Shown here: positions 1 through 44,859 of the stretch, in pieces | Position numbering within the stretch: position 1 is the stretch's first letter | Layout: each line of letters begins with the position of its first letter | Sequence record: PX290280.1 | Reading direction: 5' to 3' (one strand) | Length of the DNA stretch: 44,859 nt | Origin: a phage | The notes under the pieces: generated by a model | Told to the model about the DNA's origin: nothing | Database searches by the model: none | Seen by the model: the letters and a program-made list of their open reading frames with translations, nothing else | Made by a program: the position numbers and the translations under genes

Positions 1-49
1 TCTGTTCGTTTCGTTCACTCCGCTTGCGCTACGTTCACTCGCTCACGTG

Positions 50-190
50 TACCTTAGGTTATTCCTTAATGGGTGGCTTAGGTTAGCCTTAGTGGGCTAC
101 CTTAGTTAAAGCCTTAGTGCTTAGCTTAGTATCAGCTTAGTAGTGTACCTTAGTAAGTCTTAGTGTCTTCTCTTAGTGATTGCATAGCTA
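50..190. repeat. Left-end array of short CTTAG(T/G) repeats
   Basis: Many closely spaced copies of ccttag/cttagt read directly in the first 200 nt; typical of T7-group genome termini. Confidence 0.6.
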
Positions 191-324
191 AAGCTATAAG
201 ATGCAATTAGGTCGCGGTCGGTAGACCGCTAAGAGTAGGTAATAGTAATAAGATGCAGTAGGAGGAACACCAGAAACCTAGCCAACCTAGTCTATGCTAG
301 CTCTGTATCTATTGCTTTGCCTTA

Positions 325-340
325 GTCTAACATGTGAGAC
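325..340. repeat. Degenerate copy of the 16-bp palindrome (gtctaacatgtgagac)
   Basis: One mismatch relative to the GTCTCACATGTGAGAC palindrome found at six other sites. Confidence 0.5.
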
Positions 341-374
341 AACCTAGATTTATCTTAGTGATGATAGCTTAGTA

Positions 375-403
375 TTGACAAGGTCGGTTTAGTGTAATAC
401 TAT
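375..403 (+). promoter_or_regulatory. Candidate host sigma70 early promoter
   Basis: TTGACA (375-380), 17-nt spacer, TACTAT (398-403), upstream of the first early ORFs. The -10 is weak. Confidence 0.35.
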
Positions 404-475
404 TCATCACGTAGGCAGCACTGAGGTGCTTAGTAGCCAGCTAGTAAGGCGTACGAAGAGACTAGTGCCTACATT

Positions 476-491
476 GCTCTTTAACAATCTG
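476..491 (+). promoter_or_regulatory. Conserved early-region element, copy A (GCTCTTTAACAATCTG)
   Basis: One of four copies of a 16-17 nt motif placed about 40-90 nt upstream of consecutive early start codons. Confidence 0.5.
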
Positions 492-546
492 CTTAGTGTA
501 ACCTATGTATGCCGTGGTTAATTACTTATTGAATGAGGTATTAACT

Positions 547-678
547 ATGAGTTTAGCAACGCTGAGTTATGAAGAAATGTATGCAGCCTACTACAACGCA
601 TTAGATGAAGGAGAAGAAGCATTGACCTTCGCTGAGTTTATGGAGGCTTTATGGAGTTTCTATCATGACTCTAAATAA
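547..678 (+). CDS. Hypothetical early protein (43 aa)
   Basis: ATG with GAGGT ribosome-binding site; first of a chain of overlapping small ORFs; below the ORF-track size cutoff. Confidence 0.45.
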   Translation: MSLATLSYEEMYAAYYNALDEGEEALTFAEFMEALWSFYHDSK

Positions 679-850
679 CCGTGAACTATCCGTTCTCTTC
701 ACTCTGTTATGCTACATGATTCGTAACAACGAATTGCTTACAGATGACGAGTTGGCACTATATCACCGCTTTCTTAACGAAGGTTGGACAGATACAGTTA
801 ACCAGAAACGTGACTTGATGAAGGAGTTAAGTAATGATTCAGTTGACTGA
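665..850 (+). CDS. Hypothetical early protein (61 aa)
   Basis: ORF track entry; GGAG upstream; overlaps the previous ORF by 14 nt. Confidence 0.5.
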   Translation: MTLNNRELSVLFTLLCYMIRNNELLTDDELALYHRFLNEGWTDTVNQKRDLMKELSNDSVD

Positions 851-989
851 AGACCAACTAAAGCAACTCTTAGTCGATGCGTGGTTTGCTGGCCATGAAA
901 CCTCGCAATACACACCTAACGCTTACGGCGATGCTAACAGATATGCACGTTCTACATTAAAGGAGGTTAAAGAGGATGTATCAGCATGA
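834..989 (+). CDS. Hypothetical early protein (51 aa)
   Basis: AAGGAG 7 nt upstream of ATG 834; overlaps neighbours at both ends. Confidence 0.45.
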   Translation: MIQLTEDQLKQLLVDAWFAGHETSQYTPNAYGDANRYARSTLKEVKEDVSA

Positions 990-1200
990 GGTTTTCTTTG
1001 AATCAGCTAAAGAAGCTATTCGATTGCATGATGATATGAAGTTAGCAGATATGAAGGTTGGCTTGACCAGCTTCCTGCTGGATTACAACATGGAATATCA
1101 CCGAGTTACCTTAGTATCTGAGTATGACAACCAAGTCATTACTGAGTATCTAGGCAGTGAAGATTACGATTACGATGAAGTAATCACAACAAATCTCTAA
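976..1200 (+). CDS. Hypothetical early protein (74 aa, acidic)
   Basis: AAGGAGG ribosome-binding site; ORF track entry. Confidence 0.6.
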   Translation: MYQHEVFFESAKEAIRLHDDMKLADMKVGLTSFLLDYNMEYHRVTLVSEYDNQVITEYLGSEDYDYDEVITTNL

Positions 1201-1208
1201 ATTAACTA

Positions 1209-1237
1209 TTGACAGCCACGGCATACAAGGTTACATT
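1209..1237 (+). promoter_or_regulatory. Candidate host sigma70 promoter
   Basis: TTGACA (1209-1214), 17-nt spacer, TACATT (1232-1237). Confidence 0.3.
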
Positions 1238-1270
1238 AAGCATCAAGACGGCGACGTCTTTAAACATCCC

Positions 1271-1287
1271 GCTCTTTAACAATCTGG
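1271..1287 (+). promoter_or_regulatory. Conserved early-region element, copy B (GCTCTTTAACAATCTGG)
   Basis: Preceded by a GC hairpin (aagacggcgacgtctt) and followed by TTGGTAGGCT and the start codon at 1327. Confidence 0.5.
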
Positions 1288-1326
1288 CTAGTGCCTTGGT
1301 AGGCTAACTACTTACTAAGGTGAACT

Positions 1327-1539
1327 ATGAACTACTGCGACATCGCTCACGAATTACGCATGGAACGTGAGAAACAAGAAAGGCGGATTATCAAGAAGAT
1401 GGCTGTACTGCTTGCACACTATAAGGCAGACAAACAGCCAACACATGATGAGTTCGTGGACTTCTGTAACATGTATCTTAATGTGAGTAAGGCCACTGGT
1501 TACAGATGGCTTAAAGCACTGAATGATGGAGAATTGTAG
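1327..1539 (+). CDS. Hypothetical early protein (70 aa), possible helix-turn-helix at the C-terminus
   Basis: AAGGTG ribosome-binding site; C-terminal SKATGYRWLKAL resembles a helix-turn-helix recognition helix. Confidence 0.55.
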   Translation: MNYCDIAHELRMEREKQERRIIKKMAVLLAHYKADKQPTHDEFVDFCNMYLNVSKATGYRWLKALNDGEL

Positions 1540-1582
1540 TAATAAGCCAGCTTAATAGCTGGCCTATCAAGGCACTAACCTA

Positions 1583-1599
1583 GCTCTTTAACAATCTGG
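1583..1599 (+). promoter_or_regulatory. Conserved early-region element, copy C
   Basis: Preceded by hairpin ccagcttaatagctgg plus cctatcaaggcac; the downstream 40 nt are nearly identical to copy B. Confidence 0.5.
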
Positions 1600-1638
1600 T
1601 TTGTGTCTTGATAGGCTTACTAACAAAGGTGGACTATC

Positions 1639-1803
1639 ATGACTAACGCACAACGTAAACGCTATGATTCATTGCAAGAGAAACTTGCTGTAGCTTATGC
1701 CGCTTGGCAAGCTAACACAGACAAGAGCAAACACGATAAACTTTATAGTAAAGTGGTTGCAATTAATGCTAAAATAGATAAACTTGTGAATAGTATCTTA
1801 TAA
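1639..1803 (+). CDS. Hypothetical early protein (54 aa)
   Basis: AAAGGTGG ribosome-binding site; below the ORF-track size cutoff. Confidence 0.5.
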   Translation: MTNAQRKRYDSLQEKLAVAYAAWQANTDKSKHDKLYSKVVAINAKIDKLVNSIL

Positions 1804-1845
1804 GATAGTTGCTGGCACTAGCCAGCCTATCAAGGCACAAGCCAC

Positions 1846-1862
1846 GCTCTTTAACAATATGG
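1846..1862 (+). promoter_or_regulatory. Conserved early-region element, copy D (GCTCTTTAACAATATGG)
   Basis: Preceded by hairpin gctggcactagccagc plus cctatcaaggcac. Confidence 0.5.
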
Positions 1863-1952
1863 GTAGTCGCTTCTTAGTCTGGATAGGTTAAACCTAGGGT
1901 ATTCTTTTGAGTGCCCTATAATGTAACCTAACTAACTAATGAGGATTAAATC

Positions 1953-2282
1953 ATGGAACGCAACGCTAACGCTTACTACAACCTTCTGGCTGCAACTGTT
2001 GAAGCATTCAACGAGCGCATCAAGCACGATGAGATTCGTGAAGATGATGATTACTCTGATGCACTGCATGAGGTTGTAGATAGCATGGTGCCAGTTTATT
2101 ACAGCGAAATCTTTACTGTGATGGCTGCTGATGGCATTGATGTTGATTTTGAAGATGCTGGTTTGATTCCTGATACGAAGGATGTAACCAAGATTCTACA
2201 AGCTCGCATCTATGAAGCTCTTTATAATGATGTACCAAATGACAGCGATGTAGTTTGGTATGAAGGCGAAGAAGAGGAATAA
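1953..2282 (+). CDS. ocr: Ocr-like DNA-mimic anti-restriction protein (T7 gene 0.3 homolog)
   Basis: 109-aa highly acidic protein. The segment [43 protein letters not shown] aligns with T7 Ocr as recalled ([43 protein letters not shown]). GAGGA ribosome-binding site. Confidence 0.8.
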   Translation: [109 protein letters not shown]

Positions 2283-2286
2283 TAAG

Positions 2287-2400
2287 ATGGAAAGGCAATA
2301 TAACTTCATCTTCTCAGACGGTGTAACCCTGAAATGTTCCTTACGATTTGCGCAGATTCGTGAGGAAGTGCTAGGTACTACATACAAACTATTTAGCTGA
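2287..2400 (+). CDS. Hypothetical small protein (37 aa)
   Basis: GAGGAA ribosome-binding site directly after the ocr stop codon. Confidence 0.4.
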   Translation: MERQYNFIFSDGVTLKCSLRFAQIREEVLGTTYKLFS

Positions 2401-2415
2401 CACTATAAGAGAAGG
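2391..2415 (+). promoter_or_regulatory. Degenerate phage-promoter-like sequence (ATTTAGCTGACACTATAAGAGAAGG)
   Basis: Matches the phage promoter core but has an extra A before the initiating G; upstream of the RNAP gene. Confidence 0.35.
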
Positions 2416-2476
2416 CTTAACAAGGCGTTGCTACGGTAGCGCCTGATTAAACTTTCACTTACTAGGAGTTGAGATT

Positions 2477-2662
2477 ATGAAAACCTTGATTGGATGCTTC
2501 TTGTTGGCTTCTCTTGCTCTGGCATTTACCGCTAAAGCTGGTTATGACGCTTATAAAGTAGAACAAGCCCAGCAAGACTGGGCCAAAAAGTTCAACTTGT
2601 GCAGCAAGAGCAACACCTACGAGTACTGCAACAAAACACTAAGACACTTATGGAAAGAGTAA
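2477..2662 (+). CDS. Small secreted protein (61 aa) with a signal peptide
   Basis: N-terminus MKTLIGCFLLASLALAFTAKA-GYD looks like a Sec signal peptide with an AKA cleavage site; mature part carries two Cys; AGGAG ribosome-binding site. Confidence 0.6.
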   Translation: MKTLIGCFLLASLALAFTAKAGYDAYKVEQAQQDWAKKFNLCSKSNTYEYCNKTLRHLWKE

Positions 2663-2725
2663 CTAGCCTATAGCCTACCTGAGTGGGCTATGTGATATTT
2701 ACTTACACTATATAAGGTGATTACT

Positions 2726-3610
2726 ATGACTACTGAAAACACCCTCGTGTCTGTCCGTGAAGCTGCAACCGCTGAAATCAAGCAACATTTAGACAATATC
2801 GGCACTTCTTACATCAAAGTTGGCGCTTGTCTGAATGAATTACGCGGTGATTTCGAAGGTCAAAAAGACTTTTTAGCTTATGTAGAATCAGAGTTCGGCA
2901 TCAAGAAGGCACAATGCTACAAGCTGATGAGTGTAGCCCGTGTCTTTGAAGGAGACGAACGCTTTAAAGGTGTGGCTATGCGTGTAATGCTGGCGCTTGT
3001 TCCTTTCGCTGATGAAAATATAATCATGGAGAAGGCCGCAGAACTCGCCGCAGCTGGCAAGCTGGACACTAATGCCGTAAACGCCCTGATTGAACCTAAG
3101 AAAGAGATAAAGACTGAAACGGTACAATCTAAGGCTGTGGCGGTAAAACCGCAGGAGAACGCGACTAAGGCCGCAGAATCACAGGAAATGCAAGCGCCGC
3201 AGGTAGTGACACCCGCGAGCGAGCAGGAGGCCGACGAATCAGCACCATGGGAAGAGGAAAGCAAGCCGGAAGCGCCAAAGGTAGCGCCGCTGGATAACAC
3301 GGCTAATACCGAAAACGCCGCTATGGCTAGCCTCTTAGCACAAATTAAGGCACTGACTGAGCAATTACAGGCAGCTAATGACCGCATCGCCTCCTTAAGT
3401 AGCGCACGCGAAAGCAAGAAGGCAGCCGCACCTATGCTGCCGCAATTCAAATCTTCCTGCTTCTATGCTCGCTTAGGTTTAAGCGCTGAGGAGGCAACGA
3501 AGAAAACAGCAGTTAACAAGGCACGCCGCGAACTGGTTAAGCTAGGCTATGGTGAAGGCCATGAAGCATGGCCCTTAATCTCTGAGGCAGTAGAAGAGTT
3601 GACTAAGTAA
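2726..3610 (+). CDS. Early protein with a KfrA/DUF3102-like N-terminal domain and an Ala/Glu/Lys-rich coiled-coil tail
   Basis: ATG 2726 with AAGGTGA ribosome-binding site (the track's GTG at 2717 is less likely). N-terminal FLAYVESEFGIKKAQCYKLMSVARVF resembles a DNA-binding domain; C-terminal half is low-complexity coiled coil. Confidence 0.6.
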   Translation: MTTENTLVSVREAATAEIKQHLDNIGTSYIKVGACLNELRGDFEGQKDFLAYVESEFGIKKAQCYKLMSVARVFEGDERFKGVAMRVMLALVPFADENIIMEKAAELAAAGKLDTNAVNALIEPKKEIKTETVQSKAVAVKPQENATKAAESQEMQAPQVVTPASEQEADESAPWEEESKPEAPKVAPLDNTANTENAAMASLLAQIKALTEQLQAANDRIASLSSARESKKAAAPMLPQFKSSCFYARLGLSAEEATKKTAVNKARRELVKLGYGEGHEAWPLISEAVEELTK

Positions 3611-3673
3611 CCTTATCGGTGGCATCTTCTTAGGTGTCACCTATTAAGGTTTCTTTCACTAGGAGTAAACAAG

Positions 3674-6301
3674 ATGCAAGACCTACACGCTATTCAACTT
3701 CAACTTGAAGAAGAAATGTTTAACGGCGGTATCCGTCGCTTTGAAGCGGACCAACAACGCCAGATTGCATCCGGTAATGAATCAGACACGGCATGGAATC
3801 GCCGCTTATTGTCCGAACTAATCGCACCTATGGCGGAAGGTATTCAGGCTTACAAGGAAGAATACGAAGGCAAGAGAGGTCGTGCACCACGTGCATTAGC
3901 TTTCATTAACTGCGTAGGAAACGAAGTGGCAGCATATATCACCATGAAAATCGTTATGGATATGCTGAATACAGACGTTACCTTACAAGCAATCGCTATG
4001 AATGTAGCGGACCGCATCGAAGACCAAGTACGTTTTAGCAAGCTGGAAGGTCACGCAGCTAAGTACTTTGAGAAAGTGAAGAAGTCACTTAAGGCTAGCA
4101 AGACTAAATCTTATCGTCATGCGCACAACGTAGCGGTAGTAGCTGAGAAATCTGTTGCTGACCGTGACGCGGATTTCTCCCGTTGGGAGGCATGGCCTAA
4201 AGACACCTTGCTGCAAATCGGTATGACCTTGCTCGAAATATTGGAGAATAGTGTATTCTTCAATGGTCAACCTGTCTTCCTTCGTACCTTGCGCACTAAC
4301 GGCGGAAAGCATGGTGTTTACTATTTACAGACCAGTGAACATGTTGGAGAGTGGATAACTGCATTTAAGGAACATGTAGCGCAGCTCAGCCCTGCCTATG
4401 CACCTTGCGTTATACCTCCCCGCCCTTGGGTATCACCTTTTAACGGTGGGTTTCATACTGAGAAAGTAGCAAGCCGTATTCGTCTGGTAAAAGGCAATCG
4501 TGAGCACGTCCGCAAGCTGACCAAAAAGCAAATGCCAGCCGTTTATAAGGCTGTTAACGCTTTGCAGGCAACTAAGTGGCAGGTTAATAAAGAGGTTTTA
4601 CAGGTTGTGGAGGACGTTATACGTCTAGACCTCGGCTATGGTGTGCCTTCCTTTAAACCACTCATCGACCGTGAGAACAAGCCAGCTAATCCAGTGCCGT
4701 TAGAGTTCCAGCACCTGCGAGGCCGTGAACTTAAAGAGATGCTAACGCCGGAACAATGGCAAGCCTTCATCAACTGGAAAGGCGAATGTACCAAGCTGTA
4801 TACCGCTGAAACTAAGCGCGGCAGCAAATCGGCGGCGACCGTCCGCATGGTTGGGCAGGCACGTAAATACAGCCAGTTTGACGCCATCTACTTCGTGTAT
4901 GCACTGGACAGCCGCAGCCGCGTCTACGCGCAATCTAGCACGCTCTCTCCGCAATCAAACGACTTAGGCAAGGCATTGCTCCGTTTTACCGAAGGGCAGC
5001 GTCTTGATAGCGCTGAGGCGCTTAAGTGGTTTTTGGTGAACGGGGCTAATAACTGGGGTTGGGATAAGAAAACTTTTGACGTGCGCACCGCTAACGTGCT
5101 GGATAGTGAATTTCAAGACATGTGCCGCGACATTGCAGCGGATCCGCTTACCTTCACTCAATGGGTAAATGCCGACTCCCCTTACGGCTTCCTTGCATGG
5201 TGCTTTGAATATGCGCGTTATCTGGATGCACTGGATGAAGGCACGCAAGACCAATTCATGACGCACCTCCCAGTCCATCAAGATGGTAGTTGCTCTGGTA
5301 TCCAGCACTATAGCGCGATGTTACGCGATGCAGTAGGTGCGAAAGCGGTAAACCTTAAGCCCTCTGACTCCCCTCAAGATATTTATGGTGCCGTTGCGCA
5401 GGTAGTAATTCAGAAGAATTATGCATACATGAATGCAGAGGATGCGGAAACCTTCACTTCTGGCAGCGTGACTTTAACAGGTGCGGAACTGCGTAGCATG
5501 GCTAGTGCGTGGGATATGATAGGAATCACTCGCGGCCTGACCAAAAAGCCCGTAATGACACTACCTTATGGCAGCACACGTCTAACCTGCCGTGAGTCAG
5601 TGATTGATTATATCGTTGATTTAGAAGAAAAAGAGGCCCAACGGGCTATTGCGGAAGGGCGTACCGCCAACCCTGTACATCCTTTTGATAATGACCGTAA
5701 GGACAGCCTGACACCTAGCGCAGCTTATAACTATATGACAGCTTTAATCTGGCCTTCTATTTCGGAAGTGGTTAAAGCTCCTATAGTGGCAATGAAAATG
5801 ATTCGTCAGCTTGCACGTTTCGCAGCTAAAAGAAACGAAGGCTTAGAATATCCCTTACCAACTGGCTTCATCTTGCAACAAAAGATAATGGCTACCGATA
5901 TGCTCCGCGTATCCACTTGCTTGATGGGTGAAATCAAGATGAGTCTCCAGATTGAAACAGATGTAGTTGATGAAACGGCAATGATGGGTGCGGCTGCTCC
6001 TAACTTCGTCCATGGTCACGATGCTAGCCACCTGATTCTGACTGTATGTGACCTAGTGGATAAAGGTATTACATCCATTGCAGTCATCCATGATTCTTTC
6101 GGTACTCATGCAGGACGTACCGCAGACCTGCGGGATAGCTTAAGGGAAGAAATGGTTAAGATGTATCAAAACCATAATGCCCTGCAAAACCTGCTAGATG
6201 TGCACGAAGAGCGTTGGTTAGTAGACACCGGAATCCAAGTACCAGAGCAAGGAGAGTTTGACCTTAACGAAATCTTAGTTTCAGACTATTGTTTCGCATA
6301 A
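3674..6301 (+). CDS. Single-subunit DNA-directed RNA polymerase (SP6-type)
   Basis: 875 aa; N-terminus [32 protein letters not shown] and much of the body match SP6 RNA polymerase as recalled; T7-RNAP-family segments [18 protein letters not shown] and IHDSFGTHA are present. Confidence 0.95.
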
Positions 6302-40249: not shown

Positions 40250-40326
40250 GGAAGAGTGCCGTTCAAATGAACGGCCTATTACTAGCCAATCTTCATAGGG
40301 AGGGTTGGGAAGTAATAGGAGGTTTA

Positions 40327-41766
40327 ATGGCTAATATTACCAAACCTGTCACAACTGGTATTATACATGAAGGAAGGCTGCTATCAGATTATCTAAAACA
40401 AGCATGGGATAACACCTTACACGCTGATAACTACTTTGTTAGTGTTAAAGACTTTGGCGCTAAGGGTGATGGCTCTGCTGATGATACTGCTGCATTCAAA
40501 GCTGCACTTGCTTCTGGTAAGAATGTATATATCCCTGTAGGTATTTATATAATTAGTGAGACTTTGTATTTTAAGAATCAGGTTATAAAAGGGGGCGGAA
40601 TAGCACCTATTCCGAGTCTTGGTACAATACTTGCAATCTCACACAGTGAGCCTGCATTGAAATATGATGTAAGTGCAGGTTACTCTATGGGTGGTTATTT
40701 AGGTGGGTTCTTCATAGATTATGGAGAGAACAAACCAGATAACTATGCAGGCAGAAAAGGCATAGATCTAGGTGATGCCGACCAACAAGCATGGCCTTCT
40801 CAATTTATCATTGAGAACATCATTGTCCGTGGTGCATACTTTGGTTTGCATGATGAAACAGGAGCATTCCAATACTCAATGCGCAATGTGGTTGCTATCA
40901 ATTGCTGGGAGGGGTTCCGTAAGTTCACTGGAACTACAGTCCTTATGGATACATGCTATGCGCTTAATTGCTATCAAGCATATAGACTGGCTAATGTTTA
41001 TAATATGACAATGAATAACTGCGCCATGGATGGATGCAATGATATCCAAGGTTTACAGGCATTTGATATTACAAACTGCAAAGGTCTTGTGATAAATGGC
41101 ATGTATAGTGAGAATTGTGAGATCCATCATAGTGGTAATGCTTCTATATTTATTCATGGAGATTCTACAGTAACAATCAACGGTTATGCCTTACACTCGC
41201 ATAATGTCGTTGTTGATCCATCATCTGGAAGTGAAGAAGCATACTTTCTTAGAGCGCACGACAGCTCTAGGGTCAATGTAGATGGAATCTTCTTCGGTGA
41301 GAACCTTAAATCTACTAGTATCTTCACCTACCCAATTATGGCCTCTGGTGAGTCTAGAATTAAGCTAGGAACTACAGCACTTAAGGCATGGGTAGGTGCT
41401 AAGGGTGGTGCATCTATGGCTGCTGTTGGAGATAGTCTCATTGAATATGACAATACCGTATTTAACCCATCACTTACTGCAGGTTGGTGCAGTAATAATG
41501 GTGTTGTAGCTAAAGGGACACTAGTTGTAAACACAACATTAGAACCTAATGCAGATTTAAATGCAGGAACTATACAATTAGTTGGTGACTATAAACCAAA
41601 TAAAGGTGATGTTCTTACATATGGTTCTACTTTCGATGTTCAATCATGTGCTATTATTCTGAAGCCACAAGGTGATAATAGTTGTAATGTTTACATTAAA
41701 AACCTAAGTGCAGGTAGTAGTGTTACACTTAACGGAATATTGCACGTACAGGCAATTCGTAGGTAA
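40327..41766 (+). CDS. Tailspike 1: beta-helix polysaccharide depolymerase-like
   Basis: ATG 40327 with AGGAGG ribosome-binding site; VKDFGAKGDGSADDTAAFKAAL signature of pectate-lyase-type beta-helix proteins; no T7 gp17 N-terminal domain. Confidence 0.75.
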   Translation: MANITKPVTTGIIHEGRLLSDYLKQAWDNTLHADNYFVSVKDFGAKGDGSADDTAAFKAALASGKNVYIPVGIYIISETLYFKNQVIKGGGIAPIPSLGTILAISHSEPALKYDVSAGYSMGGYLGGFFIDYGENKPDNYAGRKGIDLGDADQQAWPSQFIIENIIVRGAYFGLHDETGAFQYSMRNVVAINCWEGFRKFTGTTVLMDTCYALNCYQAYRLANVYNMTMNNCAMDGCNDIQGLQAFDITNCKGLVINGMYSENCEIHHSGNASIFIHGDSTVTINGYALHSHNVVVDPSSGSEEAYFLRAHDSSRVNVDGIFFGENLKSTSIFTYPIMASGESRIKLGTTALKAWVGAKGGASMAAVGDSLIEYDNTVFNPSLTAGWCSNNGVVAKGTLVVNTTLEPNADLNAGTIQLVGDYKPNKGDVLTYGSTFDVQSCAIILKPQGDNSCNVYIKNLSAGSSVTLNGILHVQAIRR

Positions 41767-41850: not shown

Positions 41851-44286
41851 ATGATTCAAAGACTAGGTTCTTCATTAGTTAAATTCAAGAGTAAAATAGC
41901 AGGTGCAATCTGGCGTAACTTGGATGACAAGCTCACCGAGGTTGTATCGCTTAAAGATTTTGGAGCCAAAGGTGATGGTAAGACAAACGACCAAGATGCA
42001 GTAAATGCAGCGATGGCTTCAGGTAAGAGAATTGACGGTGCTGGTGCTACTTACAAAGTATCATCTTTACCTGATATGGAGCGATTCTATAACACCCGCT
42101 TCGTATGGGAACGTTTAGCAGGTCAACCTCTTTACTATGTGAGTAAAGGTTTTATCAATGGTGAACTCTATAAAATCACGGACAACCCTTATTACAATGC
42201 TTGGCCTCAAGACAAGGCGTTTGTATATGAGAATGTGATATATGCACCCTACATGGGTAGCGACCGTCATGGTGTTAGTCGTCTGCATGTATCATGGGTT
42301 AAGTCTGGTGACGATGGTCAAACATGGTCTACTCCAGAGTGGTTAACTGATCTGCATCCAGATTACCCTACAGTGAACTATCATTGTATGAGTATGGGTG
42401 TATGTCGCAACCGTCTGTTTGCCATGATTGAAACACGTACTTTAGCCAAGAACGAACTAACCAATTGTGCATTGTGGGATCGTCCTATGTCTCGTAGTCT
42501 GCACCTTACTGGTGGTATCACTAAAGCTGCAAATCAGAGATATGCAACAATCCATGTACCTGATCACGGACTATTCGTGGGCGATTTTGTTAACTTCTCT
42601 AATTCTGCGGTAACAGGTGTATCAGGTGATATGACTGTTGCAACGGTAATAGATAAGGACAACTTCACGGTCCTTACACCTAACCAGCAGACTTCAGATT
42701 TGAATAACGCTGGAAAGAGTTGGCACATGGGTACTTCTTTCCATAAGTCTCCATGGCGTAAGACAGATCTTGGTCTAATCCCTAGTGTCACAGAGGTGCA
42801 TAGCTTTGCTACTATTGATAACAATGGCTTTGTTATGGGCTATCATCAAGGTGATGTAGCTCCACGAGAAGTTGGTCTTTTCTACTTCCCTGATGCTTTC
42901 AATAGCCCATCTAATTATGTTCGTCGTCAGATACCATCTGAGTATGAACCAGATGCGTCAGAGCCATGCATCAAGTACTATGACGGTGTATTATACCTTA
43001 TCACTCGTGGCACTCGTGGTGACAGACTTGGAAGCTCTTTGCATCGTAGTAGAGATATAGGTCAGACTTGGGAGTCACTGAGATTTCCACATAATGTTCA
43101 TCATACTACCTTACCTTTTGCTAAAGTAGGAGATGACCTTATTATGTTTGGTTCAGAACGTGCAGAAAATGAATGGGAAGCAGGTGCACCAGATGATCGT
43201 TACAAGGCATCTTATCCTCGTACCTTCTATGCACGATTGAATGTAAACAATTGGAATGCAGATGATATTGAATGGGTTAACATCACAGACCAAATCTATC
43301 AAGGTGACATTGTGAACTCTAGTGTAGGTGTAGGTTCTGTTGTAGTTAAAGACAGCTACATTTACTATATCTTTGGTGGTGAAAACCATTTCAACCCAAT
43401 GACTTATGGTGACAACAAAGATAAAGACCCATTTAAAGGTCATGGACACCCTACTGATATATACTGCTATAAGATGCAGATTGCAAATGACAATCGTGTA
43501 TCTCGTAAGTTTACATATGGTGCAACTCCTGGTCAAGCTATACCTACTTTCATGGGTACTGATGGGATACGAAATATCCCTGCACCTTTGTATTTCTCAG
43601 ATAACATTGTTACAGAGGATACTAAAGTTGGACACTTAACAATTAAAGCAAGCACAAGTTCCAATATACGATCTGAAGCGCAGATGGAAGGTGAATATGG
43701 CTTTATTGGCAAGTCTGTTCCAAAGGATAACCCAACTGGTCAACGTTTGATTATTTGTGGTGGAGAAGCGACTTCGTCCTCTTCAGGTGCACAGATAACT
43801 TTGCACGGCTCTAATTCAAGTAATGCTAATCGTATCACTTATAACGGAAATGAGCACCTATTCCAAGGTGCACCAATCATGCCTGCTGTAGATAACCAGT
43901 TTGCTGCTGGTGGACCTAGTAACCGATTCACTACCATATACCTAGGTAGTGACCCTGTTACCACTTCAGATGCTGAACACAAGTACGGTATCTCTAGTAT
44001 TAATACCAAGGTGTTAAAGGCTTGGAGTAGAGTTGGTTTTAAACAGTATGGTTTGAATAGTGAAGCAGAGAGAAGTCTTGATAGCATACACTTCGGTGTC
44101 TTGGCTCAGGATATTGTAGCTGCTTTTGAAGCTGAAGGGTTAGATGCCATTAAGTATGGAATTATGTCATTCGAAGAAGGTAGGTACGGTGTGAGGTATA
44201 GTGAAGTTCTAATCCTAGAGGCTGCCTACACTCGCCATCGTCTTGATAAATTAGAGGAGATGTATGCCGCTAATAAAATCAGTTAA
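41851..44286 (+). CDS. Tailspike 2: endosialidase-like, with a C-terminal intramolecular chaperone domain
   Basis: 811 aa; two sialidase Asp-boxes SGDDGQTW and SRDIGQTW; C-terminal about 105 aa with an S-D junction typical of self-cleaving chaperone domains. Confidence 0.75.
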   Translation: MIQRLGSSLVKFKSKIAGAIWRNLDDKLTEVVSLKDFGAKGDGKTNDQDAVNAAMASGKRIDGAGATYKVSSLPDMERFYNTRFVWERLAGQPLYYVSKGFINGELYKITDNPYYNAWPQDKAFVYENVIYAPYMGSDRHGVSRLHVSWVKSGDDGQTWSTPEWLTDLHPDYPTVNYHCMSMGVCRNRLFAMIETRTLAKNELTNCALWDRPMSRSLHLTGGITKAANQRYATIHVPDHGLFVGDFVNFSNSAVTGVSGDMTVATVIDKDNFTVLTPNQQTSDLNNAGKSWHMGTSFHKSPWRKTDLGLIPSVTEVHSFATIDNNGFVMGYHQGDVAPREVGLFYFPDAFNSPSNYVRRQIPSEYEPDASEPCIKYYDGVLYLITRGTRGDRLGSSLHRSRDIGQTWESLRFPHNVHHTTLPFAKVGDDLIMFGSERAENEWEAGAPDDRYKASYPRTFYARLNVNNWNADDIEWVNITDQIYQGDIVNSSVGVGSVVVKDSYIYYIFGGENHFNPMTYGDNKDKDPFKGHGHPTDIYCYKMQIANDNRVSRKFTYGATPGQAIPTFMGTDGIRNIPAPLYFSDNIVTEDTKVGHLTIKASTSSNIRSEAQMEGEYGFIGKSVPKDNPTGQRLIICGGEATSSSSGAQITLHGSNSSNANRITYNGNEHLFQGAPIMPAVDNQFAAGGPSNRFTTIYLGSDPVTTSDAEHKYGISSINTKVLKAWSRVGFKQYGLNSEAERSLDSIHFGVLAQDIVAAFEAEGLDAIKYGIMSFEEGRYGVRYSEVLILEAAYTRHRLDKLEEMYAANKIS

Positions 44287-44419: not shown

Positions 44420-44859
44420 TAATATCTTAGTGTACACAAGGGCAGACCTAGGTTTGCTCTTAGTGTAATCCAAGGAGGTAACATGCAAGAGGGGAATTGG
44501 GATGTGTAATGTTGGATATGGAGAAGGTTGAACCTTAGTGTTGTACAAGGATTAACCAAAGTCAAAATTTTGATATAGGCGTGTGTGAGGTGTCTCGCCC
44601 TCGCCCTCGCCGGATTTCCCCCATATGGGGCCGCGCTGCGGTTGGCTTGGGAATTGGGCTAGGCTGGTCCGTCTTCGACGGGTGGCCTAGGGCTTGCCGA
44701 AGTCTGCTCTTAGTGGCTGCACAAGGAGAACGCCTAGGAAGCGCTAGGGCACGCCTTAGTATTGGACAAGGTGATTGCCTTAGCGCAACCGCTTAGGGCT
44801 TACACAGGCCGTTTTAGGGCCATTCCTGAGCATTTGACAGGGTGAGCGTGGGTGGGCTA
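44420..44859. repeat. Right-end repeat region, GC-rich, probably part of the terminal repeat
   Basis: Reiterated CTTAGTG-N(6-9)-CAAGG units; 44438-44454 is identical to 6549-6565; GC content clearly above the genome average. Confidence 0.55.

Follow-up and report, generated by a model that had tools for sequence, protein, structure and literature searches.

The window analysed here, a phage DNA of 44,859 nucleotides (PX290280.1), carries at positions 1953-2282 of the forward strand an open reading frame that runs from an ATG to a stop codon and encodes a protein of 109 amino acids. We assign it as ocr, gene 3 in the SP6/K1-5/K1E layout and the K1F-type allele of that gene, on the basis of the reading frame, the Pfam family PF08684 and a match to the structure 1s7z. 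As had been predicted from the letters of the DNA, the product is strongly acidic: it contains 15 Asp, 14 Glu, 3 Lys and 4 Arg residues, with a net charge of -22 and a pI of about 4.05, and its 29 acidic against 7 basic residues compare with 34 against 6 in T7 Ocr. The start codon is preceded, at a distance of 7 nt, by the Shine-Dalgarno motif GAGGA (1941-1945, forward strand, read from the sequence). In an alignment of five Vectrevirus genomes this motif is invariant, whichever ocr allele comes next.

Early region and expression context of ocr

Over its first 25 kb the window is 96.8% identical to T145P2 and about 94% identical to K1E and K1-5, all of which are Vectrevirus genomes. By these genome matches it is a Vectrevirus of the K1E/K1-5 group within the Molineuxvirinae, the SP6-like subfamily, in line with the SP6-like character ascribed to it in the original prediction. 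The early region keeps the K1E gene order 1, 1.5, 2, 2.5, 2.8, 3, 4, 5, 6, 7, where gene 3 is ocr and gene 7 encodes the RNA polymerase. Homologues occupy the same position in SP6 (gene 3), K1-5 (gp03), K1E (gene 3), VEc3 (gp04) and UAB_Phi78 (gp08), and those of K1-5, K1E, VEc3 and UAB_Phi78 bear the RefSeq label 'ocr-like anti-restriction'. It had been left in doubt in the original prediction whether SP6-type phages normally carry Ocr, and the presence of a T7 hallmark in such a genome was implied to be odd. The comparison of the early regions of SP6, K1E and K1-5 settles the doubt, as all three carry an ocr homologue at the same position; because such homologues are routine there and in VEc3 and UAB_Phi78, the implied oddity falls away. 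SP6-type phages normally carry Ocr, and the instance in the window is already known: the exact 109-residue protein is present in public assemblies and belongs to a 90% identity cluster of 64 members, the named ones being called 'protein Ocr', 'DNA mimic ocr' or 'ocr-like anti-restriction'. Its presence here was to be expected and is annotated already, so it adds nothing new on Ocr or on SP6-like phages as such. A passage of PMC4837284, citing Scholl et al. (2004), relates the suggestion that the putative anti-restriction protein of SP6 explains why the phage grows in Salmonella whether or not its type I systems are present. Our literature search found no experimental test of an Ocr of the SP6, K1-5, K1E or K1F type, and the main text of the BASEL paper makes no mention of Ocr.

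Immediately 3' of ocr lies gene 4 (2287-2400, forward strand), which encodes 37 amino acids, corresponds to K1-5 gp04 and K1E gene 4, is conserved in all five aligned genomes and has no Pfam match. Gene 5 (2477-2662) encodes 61 amino acids, also with no Pfam match, and begins with a hydrophobic, signal-peptide-like segment (MKTLIGCFLLASLALAFTAKA...); its product may be exported or reside in the membrane, for example as a superinfection-exclusion factor. Since the stretch 2477-2662 has a DNA match to K1-5 and none to K1E, gene 5 represents another variable early cassette. Gene 6 (2717-3610), directly 5' of the RNA polymerase gene, is conserved in SP6, K1-5, K1E and VEc3; its longest ORF gives 297 amino acids, against 294 in the K1-5 and K1E homologues, with a low-complexity middle rich in Ala, Glu and Pro and no Pfam match.

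At the other end of the window two tailspike genes stand in tandem, in a dual-spike layout as in K1-5. The first (40267-41766) encodes a 499-residue pectate-lyase-like beta-helix protein (PF12708, E=2e-12), and the second (41851-44286) an 811-residue K1 endosialidase with all endosialidase domains (PF12217, E=8e-224). The hexamer CTTAGT occurs 55 times genome-wide against 30 expected, with 13 copies in the first 500 nt and 5 in the last 450 nt; eight same-strand copies at 10-13-nt spacing are found in 88-177, and others lie in 321-497 and 44426-44760. This is probably a short-repeat array beside the genome ends, near terminal repeats, as in T7-group phages, and no second copy of the first 30-60 bases, as a terminal direct repeat would give, was found in the window.

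A consensus scan gave two candidate sigma-70-type early promoters upstream of ocr on the forward strand, TTGACA-17-TACTAT at 375-403 and TTGACA-17-TACATT at 1209-1237, each with 10 of 12 consensus matches and a perfect TTGACA box. The scan overall was not above chance (5 sites found, 6.9 expected), and the host promoter assignments are therefore to be taken as putative; a terminator consensus scan was not above the shuffled expectation. The first phage-RNA-polymerase promoter-like site, ATTTAGCTGACACTATAAGAGA (2391-2412, forward strand), is a unique match located downstream of ocr, just after gene 4. It opens a genome-wide series of phage-promoter-like sites of the form ...GACACTATAGAAG, and the phage RNA polymerase gene follows at 3674-6301. 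Since ocr lies upstream of both this site and the polymerase gene, we place it among the early genes transcribed by the host polymerase, to which ocr belongs in T7 too; in T7, however, 0.3 is the first gene, whereas ocr of the window is preceded by five or six small ORFs and is thus the sixth or so from the left end. The target sites of EcoKI, EcoBI, EcoAI and EcoR124I in the genome are all downstream of ocr, the first at 4610, and that none falls within the first 4.6 kb is statistically meaningless, the expected number being too small.

The early gaps share a 16-mer, GCTCTTTAACAAT(C/A)TG, which occurs in four copies (476-491, 1271-1286, 1583-1598 and 1846-1861; 0.03 expected), each in a gap that is followed by a small ORF of the early region. 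A very stable hairpin (1561-1619; -37.9 kcal/mol, z = -5.6) holds the copy at 1583 in its loop, while the folding around the other three is not significantly better than that of shuffled sequences. The elements resemble, by analogy with T7, RNase III-type processing sites of early polycistronic mRNA, and may possibly act as such. The fourth copy (1846-1861, forward strand) lies about 90 nt upstream of ocr inside an imperfect hairpin at approximately 1827-1886; because the folding of this hairpin does not surpass that of shuffled sequences (z = -0.85), we make no claim for an RNase III site directly upstream of ocr. An Rfam scan of positions 1-4000 returned sub-threshold chance matches only.

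Family membership, predicted structure and functional residues

In a phmmer search of all PDB sequences, the only real matches of the window protein were entries of T7 gp0.3, with 1s7z_A at E=5e-27 and 2y7c_D at E=3.5e-27, residues 7-104 aligning with residues 7-104 without a gap. The alignment with T7 Ocr over the core, on which the original prediction was built, is thereby confirmed, and the BLASTP comparison with T7 gp0.3 that it had proposed as a check likewise gave significant similarity (50% identity over 98 residues, E=7e-32). The Pfam profile PF08684 'ocr' (DNA mimic ocr) matched at model positions 5-97 of 101 with 105.8 bits (E=1.8e-30), the cut-off being 25 bits. Homologues were found by tblastn in 572 phage records and, by protein search, as 427 sequences that all contain the Pfam domain; 40 positions are invariant among 54 aligned Ocr sequences. 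Judged by these sequence comparisons, the likeness to Ocr is far beyond chance. A SAM-degrading enzyme of the T3 gp0.3 type was considered and rejected, as the Pfam scan, which reported matches up to E=1, gave only 'ocr' and a chance-level match to KinB_sensor (12.3 bits). The DNA mimic ArdA was rejected as well, no ArdA family or structure being among the Pfam or PDB matches to E=1.

An AlphaFold model computed from the single sequence was poor throughout (pLDDT 58.5); it was discarded for this reason and replaced by a model based on a 54-sequence alignment, which is all-helical and has a pLDDT of 75.5. When this model was compared with the PDB using Foldseek, the only credible matches were 1s7z and 7eew_B, both of them Ocr (probability 1.00, TM 0.57-0.59), and the next match had an E-value of 2.6. 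The model predicts, with moderate confidence, the elongated all-helical Ocr fold for the window protein, and is weak (pLDDT below 50) at residues 63-73, which is exactly the critical acidic patch.

At the level of residues, 24 of the 34 acidic positions of T7 Ocr are still acidic in the window protein, and in the structured core 21 of 24, those lost being D12, E95 and D99. The Mut3/Mut12 patch, E59/D62/E64/E66/D67/D73 in the mature T7 numbering, is acidic at all six positions (D60, D63, D65, E67, D68 and D74 of the window protein, counting Met), and neutralisation of this patch in T7 Ocr abolished the inhibition of EcoKI in vitro (PMC3439906). The window protein ends 8 residues before T7 Ocr and lacks the end of the acidic tail; this part is dispensable in T7, where the truncated proteins Ocr109 and Ocr99 retain the inhibition of restriction (PMC3439906). 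Phe54, Ala58 and Val78 are all present, and among the 54 homologues Phe54 and Val78 are invariant and Ala58 is nearly so. Ala58 and Val78 reportedly lie in the Ocr dimer interface, to judge from the interface mutants of Zavilgelsky. Phe54 is a dimerisation residue of T7 Ocr and also the position of escape from PARIS, the F54V substitution alone allowing T7 Ocr to escape PARIS while EcoKI is still blocked (PMC9122126). Overall identity to T7 Ocr is 48-50%, and the N-terminal helix and residues at about 89-104 differ substantially. By sequence, profile, predicted fold and conserved functionally mapped residues, the window protein is an Ocr homologue.

Alleles of ocr and cassette exchange

Two alleles of ocr are distributed among these phages: a T7-type allele (MAMSNMTY...) in T7, SP6, UAB_Phi78, VEc3 and R4596, and a K1F-type allele (MERNANAYY...) in K1F, EcoDS1, K1-5, K1E and the window. 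SP6 gp3 is 77-79% identical to T7 gp0.3. Compared with the T7-like phages K1F and EcoDS1, the window shows about 80% identity in Ocr and only 29% in the N-terminus of the RNA polymerase (K1F), whereas compared with its sister Vectrevirus R4596 the polymerase N-terminus is 98.8% identical and Ocr only 45% (61% over the core). Judged by these strongly incongruent identities, the ocr alleles cut across phage taxonomy.

The boundaries of the exchanged segment are sharp. In the first 4.8 kb of the window, DNA similarity to EcoDS1 and K1F is limited to the ocr ORF (1953-2259 and 1953-2278, respectively). The alignment of five Vectrevirus genomes shows near-identical flanks up to the ribosome-binding site and ATG, and once more beginning with the GAA-rich tail and the stop codon, the swapped part being the ORF body between the ATG and the Glu-rich tail. 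Among 83 phage records matching 1811-2482, about 50 match the two flanks only, and 28 carry the K1F-type allele, since they cover all of the region. We interpret this arrangement as a tidy cassette exchange involving T7-like and SP6-like phages with common hosts. Early-gene mosaicism is familiar and commonplace in T7-group phages. When the Smith-Huggins K1 phages were compared, Ocr already appeared among the divergent genes (PMC5582158). The two-allele picture is the one point that goes beyond existing annotation, and its added value is modest.

In a rough neighbour-joining tree calculated without bootstrap, the alleles carried on Vectrevirus-sized contigs (about 42-45 kb) form one clade, beside those from contigs of about 39-40 kb. 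The record KY435490.1, named 'Escherichia phage K1E', aligns only on either side of ocr (coverage of 54%, in two segments) and therefore has an ocr allele other than that of the K1E reference NC_007637; either the name has been applied loosely to this isolate, or stocks called K1E are not uniform at the locus.

Proposed role and closest known systems

The gene is very probably the Ocr of this phage, an early anti-restriction DNA mimic, the function being assigned by homology. In the mechanism that we propose, host RNA polymerase would transcribe ocr once the leading genome end enters the cell, and the transcript, with its strong ribosome-binding site, would be translated efficiently. The product would fold as an elongated helical monomer and dimerise via Phe54, Ala58 and Val78, and the dimer would display about 29 carboxylates per monomer in imitation of the phosphate backbone of bent B-form DNA. 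As such it would take the place of DNA in the groove of type I R-M enzymes (PMC3439906) and would probably also occupy BrxX/PglX of BREX (PMC7261183, PMC11317158), so that the type I target sites of the phage, all further in, would escape both cutting and methylation. By analogy with T7 Ocr, it may in addition bind host RNA polymerase (PMC7064336) and trigger PARIS-type abortive infection (PMC9122126, PMC11464382). What the original prediction says of Ocr, namely that type I R-M and BREX are blocked by it and abortive infection is triggered, agrees with the literature on T7 Ocr (PMC3439906, PMC7261183, PMC9122126) and would extend to the window protein by analogy. Ocr would in this way shape the host range, favouring plating on type I R-M or BREX strains yet exposing the phage to Ocr-sensing abortive systems, which is relevant as K1-capsule phages of this group are therapeutic candidates.

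A protein of the Ocr fold could instead serve mainly for host take-over, binding in the DNA channel of the E. coli RNA polymerase to stop host transcription, with anti-restriction as a secondary activity. T7 Ocr does bind RNA polymerase and inhibit transcription (PMC7064336), the PDB entries 6r9b and 6r9g are among the matches of the window protein, and ocr is expected to be expressed early, just ahead of the switch to transcription by the phage polymerase. Such a role is, however, compatible with anti-restriction, the present evidence not discriminating between the two targets, and with the EcoKI-critical residues all kept and many type I sites in the genome needing protection, host take-over as the main function appears improbable to us. 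That ocr is a decaying or non-functional remnant is hardly credible: apart from the 8 residues missing at the C-terminus relative to T7 Ocr, which might suggest decay, ocr has an unbroken reading frame and a conserved ribosome-binding site, the 90% cluster has 64 members and all 427 homologues have the Pfam domain. The 40 positions invariant among 54 sequences and the activity of T7 truncations of like length (PMC3439906) speak for a functional protein too, and the pseudogene reading was rejected in view of the intact frame and the many conserved homologues.

The allele pattern admits a further interpretation, to which we assign a small though appreciable chance, namely that the K1F-type allele is functionally shifted: it would keep the inhibition of R-M and BREX and have been exchanged since the defences inhibited or triggered differ, as for instance in escape from PARIS. 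Genomes sharing more than 90% identity elsewhere do carry, at this one locus, alleles of only about 45% identity, with breakpoints exactly at the ORF ends, and the specificity of Ocr is evolvable, since F54V alone suffices for T7 Ocr to escape PARIS with EcoKI still blocked (PMC9122126). Phe54 itself is, however, present in both alleles, and mosaic exchange of early genes in the T7 group needs no special selective explanation. It is a rather speculative thought that host defences which resist or sense Ocr keep the alternating alleles in circulation, the K1F-type having a different spectrum of inhibition or triggering. If this were true, the K1F-type allele might, for example, evade a PARIS-like sensor or cover different variants of type I or BREX systems. 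The clean two-allele cassette would lend itself conveniently, as a natural experiment, to the comparison of Ocr variants. We retain the reading of the gene as an anti-restriction DNA mimic.

Among the known systems, ArdA, the DNA mimic of plasmids and transposons, and the SAMase gp0.3 of T3 are functional or positional analogues, with an early function against type I restriction, and are unrelated in sequence to the window protein. The experimentally characterised prototype, T7 gp0.3, shares with it PF08684, the patch 59-73, Phe54/Ala58/Val78, extreme acidity and the early host-transcribed position, and differs in length (117 residues against 109), in the N-terminus (MAMSNMTY... against MERNANAYY...) and in the acidic tail, which is shorter in the window protein. 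SP6 gene 3 and the Ocr of the VEc3/R4596 type have the same locus, architecture and family; they carry the T7-type allele, with 44-45% full-length identity to the window protein. Outside Vectrevirus, the closest allele is gp0.3 of K1F and EcoDS1 (Kayfunavirus, Studiervirinae), with about 80% amino acid and 74-78% nucleotide identity confined to the ORF, although the phage genomes that carry it are only distant relatives of the window. K1F and many of its relatives have a C-terminal extension of about 60 residues that is absent from the window protein: K1F gene 0.3 (1114-1623) encodes this long form, as do many K1F-type ocr genes from genomes of about 39-40 kb, in which the extra domain follows the core to give 162-177 residues and ends, like the short form of EcoDS1, in the acidic tail ...EEDCE. 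Every allele from a Vectrevirus-sized contig, like the window protein, is of the short form. The nearest relatives are K1-5 gp03 (YP_654101.1) and the gene 3 product of K1E (YP_424972.1), which are 95% and 93% identical, respectively, to the window Ocr at the amino acid level, occur at the same position between the same flanking genes and have the same short form of 108-110 residues. Only a handful of substitutions, such as K24/H25, D31 and M45 in the window protein, separate it from them.
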